Program-made: the position numbers and the translations under genes | The notes under the pieces: model-generated | What the model was told of the DNA's origin: nothing | The model's database searches: none | The model's input: only the letters and a program-made list of their open reading frames with translations | From: Escherichia coli | Lineage (GTDB): Bacteria; Pseudomonadota; Gammaproteobacteria; Enterobacterales; Enterobacteriaceae | Direction: 5' to 3' (one strand) | NCBI RefSeq assembly: GCF_003790525.1 | Contig: NZ_CP033635.1 | Length of the DNA stretch: 64,000 nt | Shown: in pieces, positions 12,366-24,626 of the stretch | How positions within the stretch are numbered: the first letter of the stretch is position 1 | Layout of the letters: every line of letters starts with the position of its first letter

Positions 12366-12423
12366 AATTAACTACACCATTAACTACACCGTTCGGCGCA
12401 CTGTATGAAACAACGTGGAACAA
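12366..12423 (+). repeat. Arm module, left end: AATTAACTACACC ATTAACTACACC, then 19 nt, then ACAACGTGGAACAA
   Basis: The same two-part module recurs in the same orientation at 23567..23624, next to int. Probable arm-type Int/RDF binding sites. Confidence 0.6.
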
Positions 12424-13466
12424 ATAGACACAAGCGGCAGGCTATACCGTTATCATTTTTCAGCTATCCGTCATGAAGCTGGTGGATGATCACGGATAAC
12501 CAGGCATCTACAGCGCCTTAAAAAGCTGAACCCGACAAACATTTCTGCTTATCGGGTCCGATCGCTCTTTCTACTCGTGGCAGATGAGTTTACTAGGAAG
12601 GGGGGAACATTGTATCAGGCTATCCCCTTTCTGTGCTGATTCGGCTGGTGAATGATCTACTTGGGGCACTACACTTTTCGGATAGTGCGGGTATCCGGTT
12701 TTCTGCCTCATCGAATTTTAAGCCTTCTGACGGCCTGTATATCATTTCCTGTGGAGTTGCCGCCCTGATAGCGAATACTGCGGCAGCATGTGATTTACCC
12801 CCCGTTCTGTTGATGTTTGATGTGGCTGGTTGATGTGCTGCCATGTTTTCCGCCAATGGTGGAAAAGCCCACCAGCGCAACGCAGGACGCATAAAACCAT
12901 TGCGATGACTCTGGACGCAAAACCACGTTTAACGATGTTTTGCACTGAACCAGAATACTGTTCGTTTTTGTCTCGATGTCCGTACGTATTACGTCCGCAC
13001 CTAATCCGGCATCATGCCCACCAGCGTAACGCATTTTTTTAATTTCGTGGCTGTGCGTCCACCAGCTACGCCGGAATGGGGTATTCCGTTTCAACGGAAC
13101 AGGTATGACGAACATAATCGCACCTTCTCCCGAAAACGGTGCGACCTGCATCATCGAAATGGTGATTCAGCTACTCGGCGATTTTCACCATTCAGAATCT
13201 GGCGGGTGAGTTATCCAGCTTCCACCAATGGGGGATTCTGGAACAATCAACGGGTTACGCCTTATCAGCAAAAAAGCACATCAACTGTAAAGGAAATCGT
13301 TATGGTTGCTGGTGGGCTGCGTCACCATCATGGTGATGATGCTGTCCAGTCAGCCGGAACGGTTGAACAGGGTGGCTATGGGTCACTCTGTTGTGCGTTA
13401 TTTGCGTGATCCTGGTACGGGGTGACTATCTTTCAGATAGTCGGTTGCCTGGTTACACGAAAAAAT
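12424..13466. other. ORF-poor, Chi-rich segment at the integrase-distal end of the island
   Basis: Only short, mutually overlapping ORFs (131 aa or less) in all six frames. Five Chi octamers: + strand at 12478 and 13308; - strand at 12869, 13018 and 13059. 18-bp direct repeat GCCCACCAGCG(C/T)AACGCA at 12867 and 13016. Confidence 0.6.
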
Positions 13467-13838
13467 TTACTTCCTGCGTTTATCCTGCTTTGTATGCCCG
13501 TGCTGAATGCCCCGCAGTGGATCTTCTTTTTTCAGGTCGATCCCCATGTCCGTTAGTGTTTTTGTGGCGGCGGTTCTTATGGCACAAATCAGGTCTCTTT
13601 CCGGTTCCCGGGTTATGGTTGCCTTCCGGATGCATGCCGTTCGTCGTTCCGTTACATACTGACGCGCTTCATCACTTGCCGCCTGTTTCAGTAACTCACC
13701 CCAGCGATTAGCCGCCCGTCGCCATAAACCTTTCGCTTCCAGTTCTTCCGCTTTGTCATCATGCACCATAAGCATAATCCCATTGATACCTGTTAACTCT
13801 GAATGGTTGGTTTCTGTTCTTTTGATAATTTCCCGCAT
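13467..13838 (-). CDS. PerC-family transcriptional regulator (copy 2)
   Basis: Core MVHDDKAEELEAKGLWRRAANRWGELL is the PerC/Pch signature and parallels the paralog at 17352..17624. The internal ATG at 13769 (100 aa) may be the true start. Confidence 0.7.
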   Translation of the reverse strand: MREIIKRTETNHSELTGINGIMLMVHDDKAEELEAKGLWRRAANRWGELLKQAASDEARQYVTERRTACIRKATITREPERDLICAIRTAATKTLTDMGIDLKKEDPLRGIQHGHTKQDKRRK

Positions 13839-13840
13839 AG

Positions 13841-13872
13841 CTTATTGTATGACAGTACTGTCCCACAATAAG
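13841..13872. promoter_or_regulatory. 32-bp nested palindrome in the divergent perC2 / orf96 control region
   Basis: CTTATTGTatGACAGTACTGTCccACAATAAG. Overlaps the aaggag RBS of the 13884 ORF. Confidence 0.5.
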
Positions 13873-13883
13873 GAGTTGCACGC

Positions 13884-14174
13884 ATGAGAATGACTAGGCA
13901 CAAAAAACAGATTCTTGAACTCTACAAACCTGAGTATCGCGATTGGGTGCGGGTGGAGGCCGGAGATCCGCCTTTTGATGTTCGTGGTGTGACAGTGCTG
14001 CTCTATGGTTCCGAATATCGGCGATATCACATAGAGGCAACACGAAGGACGCTAAACGCTATGGTTCGTGATAAGTTGCTGGAGCGTGTGAAAGTCCGTG
14101 AGCCACGTTTTGATGTGCGTATTGGTGGCGATGGTGCGCATTGCACGGTAATCCGCTATGGCCTGGTAAGGTAA
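13884..14174 (+). CDS. Hypothetical protein, 96 aa (island cargo)
   Basis: ATG preceded by aaggag. No family recognised. Confidence 0.6.
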   Translation: MRMTRHKKQILELYKPEYRDWVRVEAGDPPFDVRGVTVLLYGSEYRRYHIEATRRTLNAMVRDKLLERVKVREPRFDVRIGGDGAHCTVIRYGLVR

Positions 14175-14204
14175 GCCATCGGGTAAATCAGATGATTAAA
14201 TCAC

Positions 14205-14226
14205 CAGAATGTAAATTTACATTCTG
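14205..14226. terminator. Perfect 22-bp palindrome between convergent ORFs
   Basis: cagaatgtaaatttacattctg. No clear T-tract. Confidence 0.4.
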
Positions 14227-14276
14227 CCAGCCACCAGCTACCCTCCTCAAAATTGAGGACCCTTTTTATCAACTGG

Positions 14277-14558
14277 TTACCGCCGCAACCGTTCCGGCTT
14301 CTTCCACTGATAAGTGTTTTTCGCGCTCTCCTGATACATCGCCACGCGTCGACGGTATGCCAGCAACTCTAGTACTCTGATTCGTATGTCGCGCATATCC
14401 ACGCCGTTAAGCTCAATACCATCACGGCGCATTACATCAGCAACAACACGCACATAATTTTCGGCGGTCACGCTGTCCGGCTGCGTGGCCTGTTCGTCAT
14501 GCTGCTGGCTGATTCCGGTAACGCGGCGGATTAATCCCAGTAGTTCGACTTCTGTCAT
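14277..14558 (-). CDS. Hypothetical protein, 93 aa
   Basis: Track ORF 14277..14756 runs through the cos/cosB DNA. The internal ATG at 14558 (MTEVELLGLIRRV...) lies just past cos copy 1. Confidence 0.55.
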   Translation of the reverse strand: MTEVELLGLIRRVTGISQQHDEQATQPDSVTAENYVRVVADVMRRDGIELNGVDMRDIRIRVLELLAYRRRVAMYQESAKNTYQWKKPERLRR

Positions 14559-14591
14559 TGTGCCCCCATCGCTCTGATAGTCTGGTGTCGT

Positions 14592-14656
14592 CGGGTCCTT
14601 TCCGGCATGTGGACCCGTTACGGGGCGTCGACCTCGCGCGTTTTCACTATTTATGA
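14592..14656 (+). other. Lambda-like cosQ-cosN, copy 1; predicted 12-nt cohesive end GGGCGTCGACCT at 14623..14634
   Basis: GGGTCCTTTCCGG..CCGTTACGGGGCGTCGACCTCGCGCGTTTTCACTATTTATGA closely parallels my recollection of lambda cos (..GGGTCCTTTCCGGTGATCCGACAGGTTACGGGGCGGCGACCTCGCGGGTTTTCGCTATTTATGAAAA). Confidence 0.8.
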
Positions 14657-14672
14657 AAATTTTTCGGGATCC

Positions 14673-14769
14673 ATGTCCGGTTTCTCTGCAAGTTAACCAT
14701 ATGAAAAATATAAAAACATGCTTTCCATGAACCGGACATGCGCAAAAAACAGACACTAAAACCGGACAT
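14673..14769 (+). repeat. cosB-like array: three AACCGGACAT sites (14673..14682 inverted, 14730..14739, 14760..14769) around an A/T-rich spacer
   Basis: Position just after cosN, and the one-inverted plus two-direct layout, mimic lambda R3-I1-R2-R1 with a different site sequence. Confidence 0.6.
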
Positions 14770-14837
14770 CGAACCAGTTAACCGAAAGTGTGCACAAATC
14801 ACATTCATTGCTGCGAGTGATTAACAAGTTATCGGCT

Positions 14838-15272
14838 TTACTGTTCTGTATCGGCTGATTGCTCCATGCTGGCACGGCGAACGCTTACGGCATGACGCCA
14901 CCCAGCCAGAAAGCCAGCCATTTTATTTCGTGCCTTGCTCACATCTTCCGGTGAATAGCCGTAAATATGCAAACCTTCATCAAATCGATGTTCTGTTTCT
15001 TCACTGGAGTACTCGTCACGCTCAGATGAAAGCAGCCTCGCAAACATAATTTTTTCCAGCGCACTGGTTTCTACGTGATATCCGATGGTCTGAAGATGGC
15101 TTTTACCTGAATACCAAAGCAATGTATGCCCGATGTGATAACCGCCAGACTTTCCGCGATCCGCATTAAGATACGGCATCCCCTGTTTGGTCCATGCGCG
15201 AATAGTGGTTCTGTTAACCTTGAAATGTTCAGCTATTTCCTGCTGACTTACAAAACAAGCTTTATCAATCAT
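14838..15272 (-). CDS. Nu1-like small terminase / packaging-specificity protein (N-terminal wHTH)
   Basis: VSQQEIAEHFKVNRTTIRAWTKQGMPYL aligns by eye with lambda Nu1 VNKKQLADIFGASIRTIQNWQEQGMPVL. Starts 67 nt downstream of cos copy 2, the lambda cos-Nu1 arrangement. The C-terminal half is not recognisably Nu1-like. Confidence 0.75.
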   Translation of the reverse strand: MIDKACFVSQQEIAEHFKVNRTTIRAWTKQGMPYLNADRGKSGGYHIGHTLLWYSGKSHLQTIGYHVETSALEKIMFARLLSSERDEYSSEETEHRFDEGLHIYGYSPEDVSKARNKMAGFLAGWRHAVSVRRASMEQSADTEQ

Positions 15273-15339
15273 AATGTTACCTTAACTGCATGGTTAAATA
15301 TCAATCAAGTGGTGGTGGTGTCACCTTCACGGAAAAACG

Positions 15340-15404
15340 TCATAAATAGCGAAAACGTGCGAGGTCGACGCCCCGTAACGGGTCCACATGCCGGAAAGGA
15401 CCCG
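15340..15404 (-). other. Lambda-like cosQ-cosN, copy 2 (inverted); cohesive-end sequence at 15362..15373
   Basis: Reverse complement of 14592..14656 with 2 mismatches in 65 nt. No AACCGGACAT sites between it and the Nu1-like start. Confidence 0.8.
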
Positions 15405-15429
15405 CAAAAAAAGCCGGATTTCTCCGGCC
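15405..15429 (-). terminator. Rho-independent terminator after the capsid operon
   Basis: Minus strand reads GCCGGA-gaaa-TCCGGC followed by TTTTTTT. Nearly identical hairpin at 17322..17345. Confidence 0.7.
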
Positions 15430-15502
15430 TTGTCTCAGATGGTTTTCAGTATGCGATAGATGTCGCCGTCATCGCCCTGGTTTGTGCCATCGTTCCCCCT
15501 GC

Positions 15503-15838
15503 TTATCGGGCCAGCGGCTGAACGGATACGCCGGAACCCGCAAAGGCGGCGCATTTTTTCGCATCGGTGTCGACGCTCTCAGGCCAGTTAACGGCGGCAA
15601 TATTGAATATCCCCGTCTTGTAACACTGTGCTGATTTCTGCTTTGACGTGTCCACAGGGTACGAGGTCAGATAAACAGCCTTGCCAGATTCCTTACCATC
15701 CCACGCCTTAAACTCGCCATTGTCTGCCAGCATCAGCGGGGTAAATTCCTGAATAACGCCAGCATCAGCGGCAAAATGTACCAGCGTCGTGGATACCTGT
15801 TGGCTGCCTGAAAATAACTCAATGTATGGAGCGTCCAT
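15503..15838 (-). CDS. Head decoration protein (lambda gpD-like)
   Basis: 111 aa. TPLMLADNGEFKAWDG and AAFAGSGVSV parallel gpD TPLMLDTSSRKLVAWDG and TAFAGTAISIV. Confidence 0.8.
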   Translation of the reverse strand: MDAPYIELFSGSQQVSTTLVHFAADAGVIQEFTPLMLADNGEFKAWDGKESGKAVYLTSYPVDTSKQKSAQCYKTGIFNIAAVNWPESVDTDAKKCAAFAGSGVSVQPLAR

Positions 15839-15849
15839 AGAATCCCCCG

Positions 15850-16905
15850 TTAAGCAATTTTGACGGTAACAAATTTGCGAATATCTGCCGGTACAGGCTG
15901 CGGTGCGCTGTGCGTCTGCACGTACTCAATCGCCGGATCGCCGTCCTCAATCCAGTTTTTCGGGTAGTACATGTTTTGCGTTGCGCCCGTTCTTACCGCT
16001 TCCTGATCCATAATCGCACCATATGCCACCAGCCCTTTATTGTTGGTGTTACCCAGGACCAGCAAATCAGGCTCAAGGAAATATTTTTCGGTCCCGTCGC
16101 TGTCAGTGTATTTGCCGGAATAGACGATAAGGGCCAGATCACCAAGATAGCCTTTAAAGCTCACCACTTCGCCCAGGTTTTTACAGGCCAGCTCGGCGGC
16201 GGATTCTGATCCACGGGAAAGATCGTACAGTTCACGGAATTTTTTAAAGCTGCGTAATGTGCGCCATACCTCACCGCCCATAATCATGACGTTGGCGGGG
16301 CAACCTGCCTGATCAGCATAAAGCTCGATGTCATAGATTGGGTCGTGCATGTCTTTATCCTGCTGGGACCATTTTTTACCACTGGCCTGCTGTATGATGC
16401 AGTTTTCCGGTATTTTCCAGTCGATTTCATAGCGTTCTATGCCTTCGCCCTCAATGATGTTTTTTCCGGTCGTTACCGCATTCACCGCCAGCCATTCCAC
16501 GCGCGCCTTAATGGCGTTTATCTGGCGGCGCATGTTGCCAGTAATCAGGCGCATACGGCGGTAAGTTGGATCGTTAAGCTGTGCCGGATCTTCTCCATCC
16601 ATGCGCATGATGGTCTTTGTTGGATCGATTTCGTGCTTTGGCTTCATGTAGCCTGGTTTAATCGTGCTGGTTTCGTACCCTTTATCGCGCTGGACCTGAC
16701 TACCCACCATAGGAGAACAGAACGCTGACATCGTAACCTCTTCAATGTCCAGGGTGTCCAGCATGATGTTTTGGGTGTTGAAGGTCGCCACGTTCGGGAA
16801 AAACAGCGTGGTAAACAGCGGACTAAATTTATATTCCGAAATATCCCCGCGATTCAGGTACGCGAAAAGCTGGTTAGTTGTAAGTGCCTTTGCTTTGCCT
16901 GTCAT
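15850..16905 (-). CDS. Major capsid protein (lambda gpE family)
   Basis: 351 aa. PGYMKPKHEIDP and YYPKNWIEDGDPA parallel gpE PGYVKPKHEVNP and RYPKNWVTTGDPA. Confidence 0.9.
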   Translation of the reverse strand: MTGKAKALTTNQLFAYLNRGDISEYKFSPLFTTLFFPNVATFNTQNIMLDTLDIEEVTMSAFCSPMVGSQVQRDKGYETSTIKPGYMKPKHEIDPTKTIMRMDGEDPAQLNDPTYRRMRLITGNMRRQINAIKARVEWLAVNAVTTGKNIIEGEGIERYEIDWKIPENCIIQQASGKKWSQQDKDMHDPIYDIELYADQAGCPANVMIMGGEVWRTLRSFKKFRELYDLSRGSESAAELACKNLGEVVSFKGYLGDLALIVYSGKYTDSDGTEKYFLEPDLLVLGNTNNKGLVAYGAIMDQEAVRTGATQNMYYPKNWIEDGDPAIEYVQTHSAPQPVPADIRKFVTVKIA

Positions 16906-17111
16906 TATTCACCTCCGTGAACCTGATTGATACCCAGCGCCGCACGCAAATAGGTGCGCACCTGCCAGCCTGTTGACGGCTCAACCATCGCCAGCGGATC
17001 AAGTCCTGCCGCAATGCCTGCTTTTACATTCTGCTGGTGGCGTTCCTTGAGCGCCTCCACGATGTCGGGGCTTATGTAGACCGTCACCCCGCCTTTTTTC
17101 TCTTCTGCCAT
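16905..17111 (-). CDS. Hypothetical 68-aa protein, first gene of the capsid operon
   Basis: Stop overlaps the MCP start (TAATG). aagaggaa RBS. Confidence 0.6.
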   Translation of the reverse strand: MAEEKKGGVTVYISPDIVEALKERHQQNVKAGIAAGLDPLAMVEPSTGWQVRTYLRAALGINQVHGGE

Positions 17112-17145
17112 AGTCAGAAATTCCTCTTTGACTTAAAAAATCATA

Positions 17146-17195
17146 ACTGGATGTTCATCCAGTCCTGATTATAATCATGATTGCATTTTGCGCAA
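17146..17195 (-). promoter_or_regulatory. Candidate sigma70 promoter of the capsid operon with an overlapping 18-bp palindrome (CTG-N10-CAG)
   Basis: Minus strand: TTGCGC (17195..17190), 16 nt, TATAAT (17173..17168), then ACTGGATGAACATCCAGT (17163..17146). Confidence 0.5.
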
Positions 17196-17321
17196 CAATA
17201 TTGAGTTACGTTGCAAATTATGAAATGATTATCCCGATCATGTGTGTCAGTTCACCATAAAAAACCTCGTATACAAAAGCCCCATAAGCCCCCTGTGACC
17301 TTATCGGGCTTTTTTTAGGCG

Positions 17322-17345
17322 TAAAAAAGCCGGATTGCTCCGGCT
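17322..17345 (-). terminator. Rho-independent terminator after perC copy 1
   Basis: Minus strand reads AGCCGGA-gcaa-TCCGGCT followed by TTTTTT. A plus-strand hairpin with a T-run sits back-to-back at 17286..17317. Confidence 0.7.
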
Positions 17346-17351
17346 GTGTGC

Positions 17352-17624
17352 TCACTTCTGCGGGTAGTTGCGCCATATTGCTTTGCCAATACCAGCTATC
17401 CCCATTTGTTTTTCAGTGCGATTAACTGACCTTTTCAGAGCGCCTAAATCATCCGGCGGCTCCGGTGGCCTCTGTGCCTTACGGATACATTCCGCGCGAC
17501 GCATTGCCACCTGTTCGCGCTCCTTGTCTGTCTCCACCAGCCTCATAACTTCACCCCATCGCGCCGCCGCCCTCCGGTAAAAGCCTTTTGCCTCGAGTTC
17601 CTCCGCTATGCGGTCATGTACCAT
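17352..17624 (-). CDS. PerC-family transcriptional regulator (copy 1)
   Basis: 90 aa from MVHDRIAEELEAKGFYRRAAARWGEVM. Start is 11 nt after the ssb stop with a ggggg RBS. Track ORF 17352..17744 overlaps ssb. Confidence 0.75.
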   Translation of the reverse strand: MVHDRIAEELEAKGFYRRAAARWGEVMRLVETDKEREQVAMRRAECIRKAQRPPEPPDDLGALKRSVNRTEKQMGIAGIGKAIWRNYPQK

Positions 17625-17634
17625 CGTCACCCCC

Positions 17635-18045
17635 TCAGAACGGAATATCATCACCGTAAGGGTCATCGCCTCCCGCTGGTGGCTGATTACCCTGTGTGCC
17701 TGTGGTTTTGCGTCTGTTCCCGCCAGGACGTGCCGCACGGGCACTGATTACGCTGTCTGCAATAACCTGCCAGCCCTGCCGCGTTTCCCCGTTCTGTCCG
17801 GTCCACTGGCTGACCTGCATCGTGCCGGATACGCTGGCAACGTCGCCTTTTTGATGTTTAGCCAGAAAGTCGGCCTGTTTGCCAAATGCGATGACCGATA
17901 ACCATAACGTCGCCTGTCCGTCCTGTGCCTGGCCGCATGGTAAAGATACCGCCATACGCGCCAGCGTCATCGGTGTACCCTTACTGGTCTGTTTTACCTG
18001 CGGGTCGTCCACCAGCCGCCCGTAAGCTGCTATCTGTGCTGTCAT
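17635..18045 (-). CDS. ssb: Single-stranded DNA-binding protein
   Basis: 136 aa with an OB-fold N-terminus, a Gly/Pro/Gln linker and the acidic tail DDIPF. Confidence 0.85.
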   Translation of the reverse strand: MTAQIAAYGRLVDDPQVKQTSKGTPMTLARMAVSLPCGQAQDGQATLWLSVIAFGKQADFLAKHQKGDVASVSGTMQVSQWTGQNGETRQGWQVIADSVISARAARPGGNRRKTTGTQGNQPPAGGDDPYGDDIPF

Positions 18046-18284
18046 GCTGTCTGCTCTCCGGTTTTAACGTTGATGGTTGTTACCTGTTCTGCTTCGGCAA
18101 TATCCCGCTCTGTCAGCGTGGCAAAGTTTGCCGCCGTCGTTGTCATGAATGCGCTTATCAGTTCGGGATGTGCTTTCGCGTATCCTTCCCCTGTGTTGCG
18201 GTCGATGATTTTTATCGCCACCCTCAGCCAGTGCTCTGTAAGGTCAATGGCGCGGTGATCTGTCTTTTTGTGGCTTACCTTCAT
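18042..18284 (-). CDS. Hypothetical protein, 80 aa
   Basis: ATGA overlap with the ssb start. No family recognised. Confidence 0.6.
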   Translation of the reverse strand: MKVSHKKTDHRAIDLTEHWLRVAIKIIDRNTGEGYAKAHPELISAFMTTTAANFATLTERDIAEAEQVTTINVKTGEQTA

Positions 18285-18287
18285 GAT

Positions 18288-18656
18288 TTACTCCAGAGTA
18301 CCGCTATTGCTGCTGTCGTTAACCGGATACCAGGCAAATACCATCGATTCACCACAGTGAACAAACTTCTTATCCGGCAGATAAAGGCACTCGCACATTC
18401 CCTCATCAGGACTATGCGGACTCATGCCCAGCTCACTGGTCAGCACGGGTAAGATTTCGCGGCAGGTGTTCCCCGCACCGAAATAATCAACCTCACAAAG
18501 CGCCCATGCAGCAATCGGGCTGTACCATTCCGTGCCGTCGTCGTCTTTGAACTTAGCCCACCAGCCAGGAAGGGCAGTTGATATGCTCAGTGTTTCAATT
18601 TCAGTGTTCATAAATTTACCTTCGGTATTTTGTCCTGCTGTTCGATTTTTATTCAT
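18288..18656 (-). CDS. Hypothetical protein, 122 aa (alternative start at 18611)
   Basis: First gene downstream of the iteron region. No family recognised. Confidence 0.6.
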   Translation of the reverse strand: MNKNRTAGQNTEGKFMNTEIETLSISTALPGWWAKFKDDDGTEWYSPIAAWALCEVDYFGAGNTCREILPVLTSELGMSPHSPDEGMCECLYLPDKKFVHCGESMVFAWYPVNDSSNSGTLE

Positions 18657-18660
18657 TGCT

Positions 18661-18860
18661 CACCATCTCTCACTTTTACTACTCACTTTTTAAAGCGTCT
18701 CGCTTCGTCTCACTTGAGATTTTTGTGTTTTGTATGTGCATGTTTCATAAGTGTTTTTTCACTGCTCACTTTTGAGCATGTATACAGGTGAGAAAGTGAG
18801 TAATTGTGTTAATATTTTGTAAAAACCTCACCATTACTCACTTTTACTACTCACTTTTTA
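18661..18860. repeat. Putative origin of replication: CTCACTT iterons flanking an A/T-rich core
   Basis: CTCACTT at 18669, 18682, 18709, 18765, 18837 and 18850, with an inverted copy at 18794. 32-bp direct repeat at 18661..18692 and 18829..18860. Immediately 3' of the initiator gene. Confidence 0.7.
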
Positions 18861-20264
18861 CAGTGGTCCTACATCATCACCATCAATGTAAATCACGGCG
18901 TCTTTTTCCAGTTTGGCTAACCATCGCCGCATATTTTTCACGTCATACCCAAGCCGTTTCATGTCATCACGTAACAGCGGGATCGTGCACTTGTCGCCGT
19001 TCTGTGTGCGTGAACGGATGCACCCCCATAGCGCGGTATGGTTTTCCGTCTTGTTGCCTGCCTCCTCGATGCGCTCCAGTTCAGCAGGGGCGCGGGGAAC
19101 GTCAATCACCACCATGGACACAATTTCTTCGCCATCTGTATCGGTGAACACCTCCACGCTTTTAAGGTCGTATGCACTCTCTTTTGGCTCCTCTGCGTCC
19201 TTCATCTTCGTACACGCCGCAACCAGTGCTGTAACGTCTGAATTTTCCCTGCTGATTCGGTACTCTGCATCAAGCGCGGCACGGAATGCACTGGAACCAC
19301 GCGCCCCCTTTGTTTCATCCTTGCCGGAATGGTGAACCACCAGCACCGTGGCCCCTGTGGCCTGCTTTATCGCGTCACACCCCTGGATAAATGCGCCCAT
19401 ATCACGGGAATCATTTTCATCATTCCCACCAAAGCAACGGGCCAGCGTGTCGATCACAATCAGCCGCACATTTTCGCCCGTTCTGCTCTTAACAAGTCCG
19501 GCAGTCCTGATAACCTGCTCCACATAGTCAGGCGATGCAGGGAAAACAGGCGCGTTAATGATGCACAAATCTGTAACCACCTTGTCGTGGGTTATCTCCC
19601 ACGCCTTAACGCGGCGTTTTACGCCCATGCTGCCTTCACCAGCGATATAGATAACCGCACCCTTACTTACCCTGCGGCCTCCCCATGCCATACCTGTGGC
19701 AACATGGCACGACCAGGAAATGGCGAGGAACGATTTATAAGAACCGCTGGCCCCGTAGGTGCTGCATAATGACTCAGCCGGAATAAGCCCCTTAATGACG
19801 TAGCTTTGCTGCGCATCGAATCCCTCAGAACCCCATGAGATGGGAAGTGTGATTTTTCGCTTTCCGCCATTCATGACCAGGCTTTCCCCTCTCTCCCATG
19901 TTTCCCGTAGTCGTGGTAGCTGGTCGCTCCAGTCCTCCAGCAGTTCGAAATTTTCAGAAAGTAGCCGCGCCTCCTGGACTCCGGCGATCGCCAGTTTTGT
20001 GGCAATGGTCAGCATCTGCATATCGTCCAGGTTTCCGGCGCGTATGACCTTTACCCTGTATCGTCCTTCATCAACAATCTGTAAGTTGTCCAGTTCGCTT
20101 AACTGATAACGGCCCAGATAAACCGGAGGGATGGGATCGCCTGCTTTTTTGGCCTGTGCAATCATGTAATGTTCTGCAAAGGAGTGAGCATTATCACCCG
20201 CAAAAATAACCGCCTCAGTGTGTTTATCTTTCGGTAACAGTTTTACGTTCGGTGCAAGTTTCAT
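18858..20264 (-). CDS. Replication initiator, RecA/DnaB-like (AAA_25-type) ATPase with a C-terminal wHTH; Pri-Rep analogue
   Basis: 468 aa. Walker A GASGSYKS, Walker B LIVIDTLARCF, VLVVHHSGKDETKGARGSSA. Confidence 0.8.
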   Translation of the reverse strand: MKLAPNVKLLPKDKHTEAVIFAGDNAHSFAEHYMIAQAKKAGDPIPPVYLGRYQLSELDNLQIVDEGRYRVKVIRAGNLDDMQMLTIATKLAIAGVQEARLLSENFELLEDWSDQLPRLRETWERGESLVMNGGKRKITLPISWGSEGFDAQQSYVIKGLIPAESLCSTYGASGSYKSFLAISWSCHVATGMAWGGRRVSKGAVIYIAGEGSMGVKRRVKAWEITHDKVVTDLCIINAPVFPASPDYVEQVIRTAGLVKSRTGENVRLIVIDTLARCFGGNDENDSRDMGAFIQGCDAIKQATGATVLVVHHSGKDETKGARGSSAFRAALDAEYRISRENSDVTALVAACTKMKDAEEPKESAYDLKSVEVFTDTDGEEIVSMVVIDVPRAPAELERIEEAGNKTENHTALWGCIRSRTQNGDKCTIPLLRDDMKRLGYDVKNMRRWLAKLEKDAVIYIDGDDVGPL

Positions 20265-20548
20265 TTCTTACCCCCTGCGACCAGCATTTCACGGATTTTG
20301 CGGATATAACTTGCAGCACGTTTCTGATTAACGGCTTTACGATGGCCCACCAGCGTGAAATCACGCCGGAACTGATAAACAGGCATAACGCAGTCATATT
20401 CGTAGCCTTCACGGCGGTAAGTGATGCGACGTTCCTCCACGCCCTTAATCATTACCGTGCCGCCGTAGTTATCACGGAAAATATCGCCGGGACGGATTTC
20501 AGGACGAGCGGGGCCGCTGGCATTAACGCCAGAATTTTTATTTTTCAT
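20261..20548 (-). CDS. Small conserved phage/satellite protein (DUF4222-like by recollection)
   Basis: 95 aa. ATGA overlap with the initiator start. Confidence 0.6.
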   Translation of the reverse strand: MKNKNSGVNASGPARPEIRPGDIFRDNYGGTVMIKGVEERRITYRREGYEYDCVMPVYQFRRDFTLVGHRKAVNQKRAASYIRKIREMLVAGGKK

Positions 20549-20553
20549 GTTTT

Positions 20554-20781
20554 TTATTCTCCGGTGTGCTGTTCTTTATATCTGTCGTGAATTGCCATCA
20601 CTGTATTTAATTCATTAATAACAGCCGTTAATAGCGTACGCACGGCAGAAAACATCATTGAATCAGATTCATCGCCACTTTCCTGCACATCAATTAAATT
20701 AAGTAGTAATGCGTCCATTTCCTTTGCGCGGATTAATGCCTTTTCACAATGAAAAATAACACCAAAGGGTATTTTATTCAT
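20554..20781 (-). CDS. Hypothetical protein, 75 aa
   Basis: ATG at 20781 overlaps the icd-like stop (ATGAATAA). Track ORF starts 14 codons earlier. Confidence 0.55.
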   Translation of the reverse strand: MNKIPFGVIFHCEKALIRAKEMDALLLNLIDVQESGDESDSMMFSAVRTLLTAVINELNTVMAIHDRYKEQHTGE

Positions 20782-20971
20782 GACTCCCCTCCTGACGGAT
20801 ACGGGCGGCGAATACAGCGACACAACCGGACGGGCAACGGTTACGCGCTTCGCGTTCCGTCCAGGCGGTCACGTGGATAATTTGAGATTCTCCGGCACTC
20901 AGTGCCAGAAAACGCCACACAAAGGCGGTTTGTGTGTGCGCTAGTCGTGGGGTATGCTGTGTTCCAGCCAT
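20774..20971 (-). CDS. Icd-like (P4 host cell-division inhibitor-like) protein, 65 aa
   Basis: MAGTQHTPRLAHTQTAFVWRFLALSAGESQIIHVTAWTEREARNRC..VFAARIRQEG fits the remembered Icd-like pattern. aggag RBS. It forms the C-terminal part of the implausible 308-aa track ORF. Confidence 0.65.
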   Translation of the reverse strand: MAGTQHTPRLAHTQTAFVWRFLALSAGESQIIHVTAWTEREARNRCPSGCVAVFAARIRQEGSHE

Positions 20972-21056
20972 AATCGTTACTCCTGTTAACGGTTTGGTTA
21001 GACGCCCTGCATGTGTTACAGCACTGCGGGGCGTTGTCTTTTTAACGGCTTTCGTG

Positions 21057-21104
21057 ATAGGGTGTACACCTATCAAGCAAAAACATAACGCTATAGGTGT
21101 ACAC
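21057..21104. promoter_or_regulatory. Operator-like sites sharing TAGGTGTACAC in the divergent icd / RHH control region
   Basis: ATAGGGTGTACACCTAT (21057..21073, near-palindrome) and ATAGGTGTACAC (21093..21104, abutting the RHH ATG). The minus-strand TTGACA hexamer overlaps the RHH start. Confidence 0.5.
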
Positions 21105-21299
21105 ATGTCAACAGTTATTAAGCGAGATAAAAAACCAAAGGGAACAGGAAAAGCCCCCCCATTCCATATGCGAATAGCTCCAGAACTGAAAGAGCAGTTT
21201 GATAATGAGGCCAGCAATGATGGGGTAAGCCTAGCCAACTGGCTTAAAGAGTTGGGGCGCGCCGAACTAAAGCGACGCGGCATTGAACCTAAAGGCTGA
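21105..21299 (+). CDS. Ribbon-helix-helix (Arc/CopG/HicB-antitoxin-like) DNA-binding protein, 64 aa
   Basis: FHMRIAPELKEQFDNEASNDGVSLANWLKELGRAELKR is a typical RHH fold signature. Opposite strand to the rest of the island. Confidence 0.7.
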   Translation: MSTVIKRDKKPKGTGKAPPFHMRIAPELKEQFDNEASNDGVSLANWLKELGRAELKRRGIEPKG

Positions 21300-21302
21300 T
21301 GT

Positions 21303-21428
21303 ATGACTGAAAAGCAGACCGATAACAAACTTTCTCTACCAGAGAATAAACCAGCAGGCTTCTTACCAAGAAAAATCCTTGATGAGATCAAACGCCGCCA
21401 GCGCCGCAAGGCCAAAGAGCAGGAATAG
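21303..21428 (+). CDS. 41-aa basic micro-protein, co-oriented with the RHH gene
   Basis: ATG 4 nt after the RHH stop. MTEKQTDNKLSLPENKPAGFLPRKILDEIKRRQRRKAKEQE. Followed by a terminator. Confidence 0.4.
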   Translation: MTEKQTDNKLSLPENKPAGFLPRKILDEIKRRQRRKAKEQE

Positions 21429-21459
21429 CCCACCAGCAAGCCAGCACACTGATCACATT

Positions 21460-21488
21460 GGCCACCGTGACAGGTGGCCTTTTCTTTG
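21460..21488 (+). terminator. Rho-independent terminator of the RHH operon
   Basis: GGCCACC-gtgaca-GGTGGCC followed by TTTTCTTT. Confidence 0.7.
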
Positions 21489-21540
21489 CCCGTTATCCGG
21501 CAATTGTGGCGCTTCGCCACACGGTTGATATAATTCCCCT

Positions 21541-21611
21541 GCTCAGATTCATTTTTTGCGCGGCAGGTAAATTGTTCAGAAAGGCGGCTCCTTATCGGGG
21601 CCGCTTTTTTT
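21541..21611 (+). ncRNA. Candidate ~70-nt small RNA, antisense to the alpA-to-icd leader
   Basis: Extended -10 TGaTATAAT at 21526..21534. Hairpin plus T7 terminator at 21580..21611. No ORF. Confidence 0.3.
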
Positions 21612-21752
21612 ATGTCTGAAAAACCGCGATTTTGTTGTTTTTCAGTTTCACCAGGCCGAACGAAGCCCCGCCCATGTTCGGGCGTATATCCAGTCTTCAT
21701 GGTTAAATCTCTGTATTAGTGGATGGGTGGCGGCTGTGTGCCGCCAGTCTTT

Positions 21753-21941
21753 TTAGTGAACTGCCTCGCAGCTTTCCTTCCATGCCAGAACTTCGGATAA
21801 AGACCAGCCAACGGAACGACCGCCCAGCTTACGCCGTGATGGGAATTGTCCGGCCTTTTCCAGGCGGTAGCGGCATGAGCGGCTAAGGCCTGTTAGCTTT
21901 TCGCATTCTTTTTCACGTATAAAGCGATCAGTGCTTAACAC
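21753..21941 (-). CDS. alpA: AlpA-family (MerR-like HTH) phage regulatory / excision-control protein
   Basis: 62 aa, GTG start. REKECEKLTGLSRSCRYRLEKAGQFPSRRKLGGRSVGWSLSEVLAW is the AlpA signature. Confidence 0.8.
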   Translation of the reverse strand: MLSTDRFIREKECEKLTGLSRSCRYRLEKAGQFPSRRKLGGRSVGWSLSEVLAWKESCEAVH

Positions 21942-22100
21942 TATTGCCCCCTTTCGTTTCTTAAAGAGTTATTTCGTGTTCTATTGCGTTGGGATGTGTC
22001 TGATTGTGTCAGGGTGATTCAGAGTTGGCAAATGTTGGTGGCGGGTATTTTACAGAAACGGGGTGATTTTAATAAAAATCATTTTAATTCAGTATTATGC

Positions 22101-22133
22101 AAAGGCATAAAATCTCGTTTTATGCCTTTTTTC
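22101..22133 (+). terminator. Strong hairpin plus T-run in the int-alpA spacer
   Basis: AAAGGCATAAAA-tctcg-TTTTATGCCTTT followed by TTT. Confidence 0.55.
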
Positions 22134-22233
22134 TCACTATTTAAAGCGTTATTCGCTAATGTATAAAAAACCAGTTGAGCATTAAAAATCAGCAACTTAT
22201 AAATCTGTATACTTTTTGACCTCTTGTTCGTGG

Positions 22234-22267
22234 TTGTTTCACGTTGTTGTGTATTGTTGCACGTTGT
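22234..22267 (-). repeat. Two more ACAACGTGNAACAA motifs (22234..22247 and 22254..22267), 20 bp apart
   Basis: Same 14-mer as in both arm modules (12410 and 23611), here in the opposite orientation just downstream of int. Confidence 0.5.
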
Positions 22268-22315
22268 ATCTGTGCACTTATCCAGTATGCGCATACTGAA
22301 AAAACACGAAAAAAA

Positions 22316-23566
22316 TTATTTTCTTCTGGCTACTGGTAGCGTGGTTACGTTTTCATGTGCTCCCGCCAGTATCTCCAACCGCTCCACCCACATATCCAGC
22401 GCATTGCGTTTCGCATCCAGATAACGGGAATGATTATAAACTCGCTGCATTCCTGGCATCTGGTGGCCTGTAAGCTGCTCCACGACGTGAGGATCCACGC
22501 CTAAATCGTTCAGCATCGTTGTAAAGGTGCGCCGGATGTCATGCAGTGACCATTGAGGGTGTTTTAGCCTCCTGTGCGCTAATCTGCCGTACTGCGATAC
22601 GCTGGCCTCCTGTTTCACTTCCCCCAGTAATAAGCCCGTGTGCCTGTTCTGCTCCACCAGCCGCGTGACGAACGGCAGGATCGCTTCCGGTATGGGCCGG
22701 AATATTGCGACCTTCGTTTTGCTGTGCTCCTTCGGAACGGTCCAGAGCATTTCCGTGAAATCCCACTCCCCGATCTCCGATAACCTCAGTTCTACCGTCC
22801 TGGCTCCGAAGACAATCAGGAGGCGGATTAGTGCGACGTAGTAAGGGGAAAATATTTTTTTGTCCAGTGCCTGCAATAATTCGCCCAGTTCTTTGGTGCT
22901 TAAGACACGTTCGCTTATATCCGGTTTTTTCCCAACGTCCGCCACGTTCAGATCGTCCAGAACGTTGCTGATTGCATAGCGCCGCCTCCGGCAAAACTTA
23001 AGCGCCTGTTTGCACGCCTGTAGCACGAATCCGGCAGTAACAGGCGTTCGCTTTGCCACCCGATCAAAACAGGCCAGCCAGTGCCGTAGCTCGCATTTAT
23101 CCAGCGGCATAGCACCAATGTGCTGTATTACGTGATTATTAAGTCGCCTTTTCAGGGCGATATAATCCACGCGGTTTTCCTTTACGTAAGACTCAAGCCA
23201 GTAGGTGAGCGCATCTCCAACCGTTACAGGCTTTAACGCTTCCTGCATGGTGTAATTCATCTCATGACGTGGATTTTTCCCCTCAGCCAGCCATGCGCGA
23301 CACTGGGCGGCTTTTTCCCTGGCTGATTTCAGGCTCAGATCAGGATAATTTCCCAGCTTAATACGTTCCGGTCGTGTCTCTCTTCCCGTTCCGGCCCTGT
23401 AAGTGAAATACCAGGTTAAAAGGCCGCTGGTTGAATGCCTGACGCTCAGATTTCCACCGTCATTAAGAAAGGCTGTTTTTTGGGCGGGTGTGCCGTTGAT
23501 TTTCCTTAGCTGTGTATCGCTCAGCTTGTTAAGTGCTCTGGTCATAATTTTGAATCCGGTCATCAC
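22316..23566 (-). CDS. int: Tyrosine recombinase, P4-type integrase (N-terminal arm-binding domain plus catalytic domain)
   Basis: 416 aa. LSDTQLRK N-terminus, catalytic HDIRRTF...GHQ..MQRVYNHSRY. Alternative start at 23545. Confidence 0.9.
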   Translation of the reverse strand: MMTGFKIMTRALNKLSDTQLRKINGTPAQKTAFLNDGGNLSVRHSTSGLLTWYFTYRAGTGRETRPERIKLGNYPDLSLKSAREKAAQCRAWLAEGKNPRHEMNYTMQEALKPVTVGDALTYWLESYVKENRVDYIALKRRLNNHVIQHIGAMPLDKCELRHWLACFDRVAKRTPVTAGFVLQACKQALKFCRRRRYAISNVLDDLNVADVGKKPDISERVLSTKELGELLQALDKKIFSPYYVALIRLLIVFGARTVELRLSEIGEWDFTEMLWTVPKEHSKTKVAIFRPIPEAILPFVTRLVEQNRHTGLLLGEVKQEASVSQYGRLAHRRLKHPQWSLHDIRRTFTTMLNDLGVDPHVVEQLTGHQMPGMQRVYNHSRYLDAKRNALDMWVERLEILAGAHENVTTLPVARRK

Positions 23567-23624
23567 AATTAACTACACCATTAACTACACCGATCGTTGC
23601 ACAAAGGGCTACAACGTGAAACAA
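23567..23624 (+). repeat. Arm module, right end (AATTAACTACACCATTAACTACACC, then 19 nt, then ACAACGTGAAACAA)
   Basis: Begins 1 nt upstream of the int start codon. Direct repeat of 12366..12423. Confidence 0.6.
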
Positions 23625-23728: not shown

Positions 23729-24626
23729 TCTTAACCCGCTGGTGCAACACATGGTCCGCTGGCGAGTGCCGCGTGTACTGGCGGTGTCGATTTTGATGAC
23801 CATCATCGTGATGGCGATGGTGTTGCTGTTAGCTTATCTGGGTTCCGCGCTCAACGAGTTGACGCGGACGTTACCGCAATATCGCAACTCTATTATGACG
23901 CCGCTGCAAGCGATTGAACCGTTGTTGCAACGCGTAGGGATTGATGTCTCAGTTGACCAACTGGCGCATTACATTGATCCGAACGCGGCAATGACGTTGC
24001 TCACCAACTTATTGACGCAGTTATCTAATGCCATGTCATCAATCTTTTTATTGCTGCTGACGGTGCTGTTTATGTTGCTCGAAGTGCCACAATTGCCCGG
24101 AAAATTTCAGCAAATGATGGTGCGTCCGGTTGAAGGGATGGCGGCGATTCAGCGTGCGATTGACAGTGTGTCTCATTATCTGGTGCTGAAAACAGCCATC
24201 AGCATCATCACCGGCCTGGTCGCCTGGGCGATGCTCGCCGCACTCGATGTTCGCTTCGCTTTTGTCTGGGGATTGCTGGCCTTTGCGCTTAATTACATCC
24301 CTAATATTGGTTCAGTTCTCGCGGCAATCCCCCCTATCGCTCAGGTACTGGTGTTTAATGGCTTCTACGAAGCGTTGCTGGTGCTGGCGGGATATCTGCT
24401 AATTAATCTGGTCTTCGGCAATATTCTGGAGCCGCGCATCATGGGACGTGGGCTGGGGCTTTCCACATTGGTGGTATTTTTGTCGTTGATTTTTTGGGGA
24501 TGGTTGTTAGGACCGGTGGGTATGCTGCTTTCCGTGCCGTTAACAATTATTGTCAAAATTGCGCTTGAACAAACAACGGGAGGTCAAAGCATCGCCGTTC
24601 TGTTAAGCGATCTCAACAAAGAGTGA
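23720..24626 (+). pseudogene. tqsA: tqsA 3' fragment (codons ~44 to the end). A 294-aa ORF from GTG 23742 stays open.
   Basis: ..[26 protein letters not shown].. continues the remembered TqsA sequence. In-frame TAA at 23715. Confidence 0.9.

Follow-up and report, generated by a model that had tools for sequence, protein, structure and literature searches.

A candidate LexA operator over the capsid-unit promoter of a CFT073-type PICI in Escherichia coli

The island and its capsid unit

The window, by which is meant the whole 64,000-nt stretch of Escherichia coli DNA analysed here, carries on its minus strand an island of 11.2 kb (12366-23592), delimited at both ends by a 26-nt perfect direct repeat (Table 1). 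No tRNA gene lies near the island ends, and the integrase end adjoins a tqsA-like ORF (23742-24626), which is apparently shortened at its 5' end. The first half of the gene order comprises an integrase, AlpA, a RepA-type helicase/primase, an SSB and a PerC-family protein, and the second half a 68-aa ORF, a lambda-E-type capsid protein, a lambda-D-type decoration protein, an Rpp-like winged-helix protein and a second PerC paralogue. Judged from its gene content, its match to CFT073, the att repeats and the cosN-like sites, the island is a Gram-negative PICI of the EcCICFT073 type: int, alpA, pri and cos are arranged unidirectionally between the att repeats, and a full set of virion genes is absent.

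The prototype, EcCICFT073, shares with this island the order int, alpA, pri, ssb, perC, c1498-like gene, capsid, decoration and rpp. The two share 92% identity in the perC-c1498 spacer, the capsid E homologue is 95% identical to the CFT073 copy, and the promoter and box described below are identical save for the 4 nt before the box. The island in the window differs in its chromosomal site, in being without c1501 and in its type of primase. Homologues of the 68-aa protein were found in Salmonella, Edwardsiella and Lelliottia.

Two intrinsic terminators of near-identical sequence (GCCGGAGnAATCCGGCTTTTTT) bracket the 68-aa ORF together with the capsid and decoration genes, and these three genes thus form an insulated unit, with the cosN-like sequences and rpp outside it. 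The cosN-like sequences are embedded in a 78-nt inverted repeat (14592-14669 and 15327-15404, 91% complementary) that flanks the rpp-like gene, and this pair, in opposite orientation, probably represents the counterparts of cos1 and cos2 of EcCICFT073. The two PerC-family genes are located at the distal end (13467-13838) and before the capsid unit (17352-17624); in many relatives sharing this promoter no upstream PerC gene is present. Further palindromes occur in the island: a perfect one of 22 bp (CAGAATGTAAATTTACATTCTG, 14205-14226) between cos and the second PerC gene, an imperfect one of 32 bp (13841-13872) just upstream of that gene, and a perfect one of 16 bp (CAGTATGCGCATACTG, 22283-22298) just past the integrase stop codon.

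The counterpart unit of strain CFT073, within the locus c1483-c1505, has been covered by RNA-seq of a shift from 23 to 37 C (supplement of PMC12890032), in which significant log2 changes were recorded for c1498 (+2.24), c1499 (+2.05), c1500 (+1.45) and c1501 (+1.17), while those of pri (+0.31), ssb (+0.24) and c1503, the rpp gene (+0.33), were not significant. In the same data set alpA rose in parallel (+2.26) and sulA and umuD were unmoved. Since c1498 to c1501 move together while pri, ssb and rpp remain static, these data provide independent experimental support for a separate, promoter-driven unit at this locus. The initial annotation had spoken of a capsid-operon promoter, and both the flanking terminators and the CFT073 transcripts bear this out, in that a late operon of the satellite has its own promoter, apart from the replication module. 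The rise of about 4-fold at 37 C with sulA and umuD flat also indicates that the unit is expressed and regulated without SOS, and the parallel rise of alpA hints at another input. Deletion of c1499 or c1500 left transfer and interference unchanged (PMC6092414).

Table 1. Positions of the island, capsid-unit and promoter features in the window
Feature	Position	Strand	Basis or remark
att repeat AATTAACTACACCATTAACTACACCG, two copies	12366-12391 and 23567-23592		perfect, 11.2 kb apart
cosN-like GGGCGTCGACCT	14623-14634; 15373-15362	plus; minus	one per arm of the 78-nt inverted repeat
Intrinsic terminator GCCGGAGAAATCCGGCTTTTTTT	15433-15407	minus	ends the three-gene unit, just before cosN-like site and rpp
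Head decoration protein D homologue (c1500 homologue)	15503..15838	minus	Pfam PF02924, E = 4e-17
Major capsid protein E homologue (c1499 homologue)	15850..16905	minus	Pfam PF03864, E = 2e-49
68-aa protein (c1498 homologue), first gene of the unit	16905..17111	minus	no Pfam hit
ATG of the 68-aa ORF	17111	minus	read in sequence
Shine-Dalgarno AAGAGGA	17128-17122	minus	read in sequence
TTTTTT run in the 5' untranslated region	17140-17135	minus	5 nt past the inverted repeat
20-bp LexA-type box GACTGGATGAACATCCAGTT (CTG-N10-CAG)	17164-17145	minus	heterology index 8.05
Inverted repeat ACTGGATGAACATCCAGT = ACTGGATG-AA-CATCCAGT (8+2+8)	17163-17146	minus-strand reading	read in sequence
CTG-N10-CAG dyad CTGGATGAACATCCAG	17162-17147	minus	16-bp geometry present
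CAGG linker	17167-17164	minus	between -10 and dyad
-10 hexamer TATAAT (perfect)	17173-17168	minus	16 nt past -35
Spacer AAAATGCAATCATGAT, 16 nt	between -35 and -10	minus	read in sequence
-35-like hexamer TTGCGC	17195-17190	minus	read in sequence; 3/6 match to TTGACA
Conserved upstream block (ATTTCATAATTTGCAAC...)	17196..17228	minus	conservation among relatives
Intrinsic terminator GCCGGAGCAATCCGGCTTTTTT	17345-17323	minus	ends the upstream alpA-pri-ssb-perC unit

The promoter dyad and its match to E. coli SOS boxes

The promoter of the unit reads, as initially annotated, TTGCGC-16 nt-TATAAT on the minus strand, with the dyad downstream of it. It is not listed by a consensus scan because its -35 hexamer agrees with the consensus at only three of six positions, although its -10 hexamer is perfect. 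The -35 hexamer is kept in all relatives, in most of them as TTGCAn, whereas the -10 hexamer is invariant among box-bearing relatives and reads TAAAAT in a clade without the box. The -10 sits inside a 12-bp perfect palindrome (TGATTATAATCA, 17177-17166). The dyad had been described as a perfect 18-bp palindrome following TATAAT immediately; its 8-nt arms in fact enclose a non-symmetric AA, so that 16 of the 18 positions pair, and it starts 4 nt after the hexamer. The CTG-N10-CAG spacing of the SOS box, also pointed out then, is present. The 20-bp box, which includes one further base on either side, begins 3-4 nt past TATAAT and extends across the predicted transcription start (~+1 to +20), behind a weak -35. 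The dyad is followed by TATGA and a run of six T, which is conserved also in relatives without the hairpin.

As a palindrome, the dyad is unremarkable in the window, which contains 29 inverted repeats when arms of 8 nt or more and loops of up to 6 nt are counted, whereas shuffled sequences give 8.5 +/- 3.2; palindromes being so common, it is notable only for its resemblance to a LexA site and for its position. No second copy of the dyad was found in the window. A role of the dyad as part of cos was considered and rejected, the cosN-like sequences lying elsewhere (15362-15373 and 14623-14634), in the 78-nt inverted repeat around rpp.

The match to LexA operators was scored with a matrix of 20 positions built from 20 E. 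coli SOS boxes, 18 of which are printed in PMC3009722. The score used is the Berg-von Hippel/Lewis heterology index (HI), calculated on the symmetrised matrix. The two others are the second box of lexA and that of uvrA, with presumed outer bases. On this 20-box matrix the site of the island, GACTGGATGAACATCCAGTT, has an HI of 8.05. Real operators, each left out of the matrix in turn, range from 2.1 to 17.3 (for example cho 8.1, ruvA 8.6, ftsK 9.8, dinB 12.0 and polB 17.3), and 12 further SOS boxes, reportedly those of the set of Fernandez de Henestrosa et al. 2000, score 4.8-12.2 out of sample. The box at the capsid promoter is thus within the HI range of real LexA operators, and the earlier description of it as a possible weak site appears too cautious, as it is not especially weak on this measure.

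The same holds for the G/C pair that had been regarded as a departure from the conserved T/A of the consensus. A G after CTG occurs in 11 of the 40 half-sites of the 20 published E. coli SOS boxes, and both halves of the ruvA box (CGCTGGATATCTATCCAGCA) carry it. By sequence, this known operator of ruvAB is the closest known counterpart of the island box, sharing its CTGGAT-N4-ATCCAG arms and 16-bp CTG-N10-CAG geometry and scoring 7.4 on the same matrix when not left out. The two differ in the central four bases, which are ATCT in ruvA and GAAC in the island box, the latter being closer to the GAGC of recA, as well as in their flanking bases and in their setting, a chromosomal repair operon as opposed to a mobile satellite.

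The match is far beyond chance. According to an exact calculation, an HI of 8.05 or lower is expected at 2-6e-7 per position, which amounts to 0.01-0.04 chance sites per 64 kb, about 1e-4 per 240-bp spacer and 1-3 per E. coli genome. The site is the top-scoring one of the window, where the next unrelated site has an HI of 11.0. Apart from two homologous positions and one alpA promoter, fetched loci totalling 1.08 Mb yielded no site with HI <=10.5, and 12 further loci contained no site below HI 12.8.

The position and the match together suggest that the 20-bp dyad at 17164-17145 is probably an operator for the host SOS repressor LexA, placed over the predicted transcription start. SOS boxes which overlap the start site are typical of genes under tight LexA control (PMC8072944). 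In undamaged cells a bound LexA dimer, located just downstream of the perfect -10 of this sigma-70 promoter and spanning its predicted start, would hinder open-complex formation or promoter escape and so keep transcription of the three-gene unit low. Upon DNA damage RecA would be activated and LexA would cleave itself, the same signal that induces helper prophages, and the vacated operator would permit transcription of the unit up to the terminator near 15410. In view of the CFT073 data and of a separate conserved inverted repeat that overlaps the -35, LexA would probably be one of several control layers on the capsid unit.

Variation of the box among related islands

Relatives were collected from IMG/VR with a promoter core chosen to exclude the dyad, which yielded 94 stretches, 90 of them homologous. 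These 90 loci contain 11 variants of the box, all with an HI of 5.5-9.5. Box positions 3-5, 8, 13 and 16-18 (CTG, T8, A13 and CAG) are invariant, and CTG and CAG are fixed in all 19 distinct box-bearing sequences, while the outermost base of the palindrome (A, T or G), the centre and box positions 1 and 20 vary, and the 4-nt linker between hexamer and box is hypervariable (CAGG, CATA, CAGA, CATG, CACA). The invariant positions coincide with those of highest information in the LexA motif. Across 12 variants, including those of Salmonella and Lelliottia, the number of bases per position correlates with LexA information content at Spearman rho = -0.74, a value of descriptive use only, given the kinship of the sequences and the symmetry of the motif.

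Other genera were reached by protein-seeded retrieval. Salmonella islands, with capsid proteins 68% identical, have the arrangement TATAAT-CAT-GACTGGATGAAAATCCAGTA (HI 7.4). In an island of Lelliottia, in which the capsid is 58% and the first gene 40% identical, CACTGTTTTTTCATACAGTT (HI 6.6) precedes the homologous small ORF by 25 nt; it represents a canonical CTGT-N8-ACAG box, with arms of only 5 bp and little in common with the E. coli box beyond the LexA-informative positions. The orthologous promoters of E. coli, Salmonella and Lelliottia thus keep the box, with changes confined to the degenerate positions of the motif, and the presence of a canonical box at the homologous place in Lelliottia favours LexA as the ligand.

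The dyad might instead be the target of another dimeric protein of island or helper-phage origin, which would keep the capsid unit repressed as long as the helper is inactive; the dyad's likeness to an SOS box would then be fortuitous. The 8-nt arms are indeed longer and more symmetric than LexA requires, ACTGGAT/ATCCAGT is nearly unchanged in the E. coli and Salmonella relatives, the island codes for several small uncharacterised proteins in addition to its two PerC-family regulators, and a clade without the box would be expected wherever the cognate protein is missing. The box does not, however, go together with an upstream PerC gene or with an Rpp homologue. PerC was rejected as the cognate regulator since many box-bearing islands have no PerC gene upstream, and Rpp and a second AlpA-like protein were rejected for lack of co-occurrence with the box. 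The module also crosses genera and occurs in islands with different replication and integrase modules, which is more in keeping with a conserved host factor; substitutions within the arms occur naturally (outer A to T or G, C to A); what the Lelliottia box has in common with the others is limited to the LexA-informative positions; the window contains the site only once; and a coincidental match of HI ~8 has a probability of ~1e-4 for the spacer. An operator for such a protein therefore appears unlikely, and this second option of the initial annotation, an island or helper repressor, is weakened by the lack of covariation with PerC or Rpp and by the spread across genera.

The dyad may also be considered at the level of RNA, either as a 5' stem-loop which stabilises the capsid mRNA or as a promoter-proximal attenuator with the downstream U-run, read through with the help of a helper antiterminator. 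A consensus scan flags the dyad as terminator-like, its fold has a free energy of -7.5 kcal/mol (z = -3.0), the Salmonella copy folds better still (-9.3 kcal/mol), and with a transcription start at A17163 the stem would form the very 5' end of the RNA. Yet the stem has 7-8 pairs with only three G-C, the U-run is offset by 5 nt, and neither a G+C-rich stem directly before a U-tract nor compensatory pairing, as in a terminator or attenuator, was found. The covariation observed was matched by 108 of 500 shuffles, and pairs are broken in the ATACAG variant, in the T variant and in the central variants, for two natural variant types without compensation, the Lelliottia copy reaching only -4.1 kcal/mol. 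The U-run is conserved equally in the U90 clade, which has no hairpin, and hence is not a dedicated terminator tail. In four loci ATCCAG is changed to ATACAG, whereby the hairpin drops from -7.5 to -2.0 kcal/mol and the HI improves to 5.7; a variant which loses the hairpin and gains in LexA score favours a LexA operator. A primary role in RNA is quite improbable.

The box is by no means universal. In a U90-type clade of E. coli (6 loci) the -35/-10 region, the T-run, the Shine-Dalgarno sequence and the operon are all kept and the box is absent, the place of the dyad being taken by GACTGACTTTTCGTTATGTT (HI 27; above 23 for the clade). Islands of Edwardsiella, Serratia, Cedecea, Scandinavium, Kluyvera, Kosakonia and Superficieibacter are likewise without it, as are the L114 lineage (capsid 62% identical) and two further lineages of E. 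coli/Salmonella, such that the box is found on 3 of roughly 13 lineages. Retention of the operon without the box in the U90-type clade and about nine lineages implies that LexA control would be accessory, dispensable and patchy. A scan of species-representative genomes seeded with proteins retrieved no relatives, and one seeded with the alignment retrieved 12 loci, none of them with the box; no similar DNA was found in the phage collection. Within E. coli the combined module of promoter and box is present in 595 of 5,426 complete genomes, including O157, O55 and uropathogenic (UPEC) strains. The E. coli relatives are mostly close kin, so that part of the conservation reflects shared descent, and the remainder of the 5' untranslated region is likewise well conserved.

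These observations bear on the possibility that the dyad has no function at all and is a chance palindrome in a young, clonally spread promoter region. The abundance of palindromes of such size in the window, the overall identity of 90-95% among most E. coli copies, the lineages which keep the operon without the dyad and the absence of a known phenotype for the capsid and decoration genes (PMC6092414) would all be compatible with it. Against it stand the CTG..CAG core, fixed beside 4 hypervariable nucleotides, the retention or regain of the box in relatives from Salmonella and Lelliottia in spite of diverged flanks, and the LexA-matrix match at p ~1e-4 for the spacer, and we regard a functionless dyad as very unlikely. 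Of the alternatives raised by the initial annotation, a LexA site is thus the one favoured by the computed tests, namely the HI, the arms shared with ruvA, the fixed positions, the ATACAG variant and the Lelliottia box. As for conservation, through which that annotation had proposed to check the idea, the outcome is divided, the box being kept in relatives from E. coli, Salmonella and Lelliottia and lost in the otherwise conserved U90 clade.

Some relatives of the capsid gene (L101, L102, L104, L106 and L110) adjoin lambdoid portal, protease, capsid or tail genes. They are of the type described as helper-embedded PICIs (PMC10111431), and no LexA-type box was found ahead of their capsid gene. 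In the L114 lineage a different symmetric sequence, TGTTGATTTTTAACACAACA, occupies the equivalent place (L114:4726-4745), 275 nt before the capsid start codon; it carries TTG/CAA symmetrically in place of CTG/CAG and, with an HI of 17.8, is not of the LexA type.

Parallels and further regulatory sequences

Control of mobile-element genes by LexA is well known, and no new principle would be involved here. In colicin promoters and in the tum promoter of coliphage 186, LexA boxes are positioned at or just past the -10 on mobile elements, whereby the host SOS repressor times a costly or lytic function. The genes concerned there are lethal or induction genes and the boxes are often in tandem, as opposed to the single box before head-protein homologues in the island.

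A closer functional parallel may be operon I of the SaPIs of Staphylococcus aureus, which is repressed by LexA according to Ubeda et al. 2007, as that work is cited in PMC6092414 and PMC6739421. Both are operons of morphogenesis type in a satellite, with a promoter of their own and a site for the host LexA, a candidate site in the present case. Their hosts (Gram-positive for the SaPIs), LexA motifs, sequences and genes are unrelated, and the likeness is one of functional analogy, not of homology. SaPI operon I encodes terS and capsid-size genes, which are needed for packaging, whereas the island unit encodes E- and D-like head proteins, whose deletion had no effect on transfer or interference (PMC6092414), and Rpp and cos lie outside it. 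A promoter with a LexA site in the late operon of a satellite would fire with the same SOS signal that also induces helper prophages.

The timing of late genes in Gram-negative PICIs is largely obscure, the published elements being induction by AlpA and the action of Rpp, and published work assigns neither control nor role to the widespread capsid and decoration homologues. The literature on EcCICFT073 describes AlpA and Rpp and not the control of the capsid promoter. The papers on EcCICFT073, Rpp, capsid-forming PICIs (cf-PICIs), helper-embedded PICIs and EcCIMP1 make no mention of LexA acting on the capsid unit, so that the regulation proposed here appears to be an unreported case of a known kind. 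Literature searches yielded neither LexA control of late genes in other Gram-negative PICIs nor an EMSA, ChIP or SOS-transcriptome study of this locus (c1498-c1501 in CFT073). If the assignment is correct, the LexA operator would represent a simple regulatory input on the capsid unit, would explain why terminators insulate this unit from the AlpA-driven module, and would constitute a convergent parallel with the staphylococcal islands. Given the presence of the module in 595 of the 5,426 E. coli genomes, SOS-inducing antibiotics could switch on the unit in many clinical strains.

A second candidate site is found upstream of the box. The conserved upstream block forms, together with the promoter, an inverted repeat ATTGCAy-N3-ATGCAAT over the -35 and the spacer (17199-17178), which is perfect in copies of the O55/O157 type (L003, L004), present in Salmonella (L099:4636-4652), duplicated in Edwardsiella and kept even in the box-less clade. 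This repeat may be bound by a second regulator. The pattern TTGCA..TGCAA shows no enrichment in the window, and a search for an AlpA motif common to the alpA and capsid promoters gave no convincing shared word.

A broader proposal would be that in Gram-negative PICIs the SOS repressor was recruited several times, each time independently, to different control points. The control point would be the capsid unit in the islands of CFT073 type, Salmonella and Lelliottia, and alpA itself in at least one box-less island (L079, box HI 4.3). LexA would then form one arm of an AND gate, the other being the second regulator at ATTGCAy-N3-ATGCAAT over the -35, and the head-protein homologues would be made only when DNA damage coincides with a helper or AlpA signal, in a convergent counterpart of the LexA control of SaPI operon I. 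We consider this scheme tentative and on balance doubtful.

Sequences resembling LexA sites are also present in the int-alpA spacer of the window, at 22157-22176 (HI 9.3) and 22268-22287 (HI 12.6). In islands of the CFT073 type this int-alpA site always ends in CAC or CAT and never in CAG, and alpA has been reported to be unresponsive to SOS alone (PMC6092414); for both reasons the site was set aside as support for LexA control. The occurrence of a LexA-like sequence upstream of a gene reported as SOS-independent means that a box-like sequence in these islands does not by itself imply SOS control. In islands with another integrase the int-alpA spacer contains a full TACTGGTTTTTTGTACAGTT, with an HI of 8.05 (L045:1241 and L008:11447 among the LexA-like sites listed), and in the box-less island L079 the strong TACTGTATTTTAATCCAGTA (L079:8812) is situated 57 nt before the alpA start codon.
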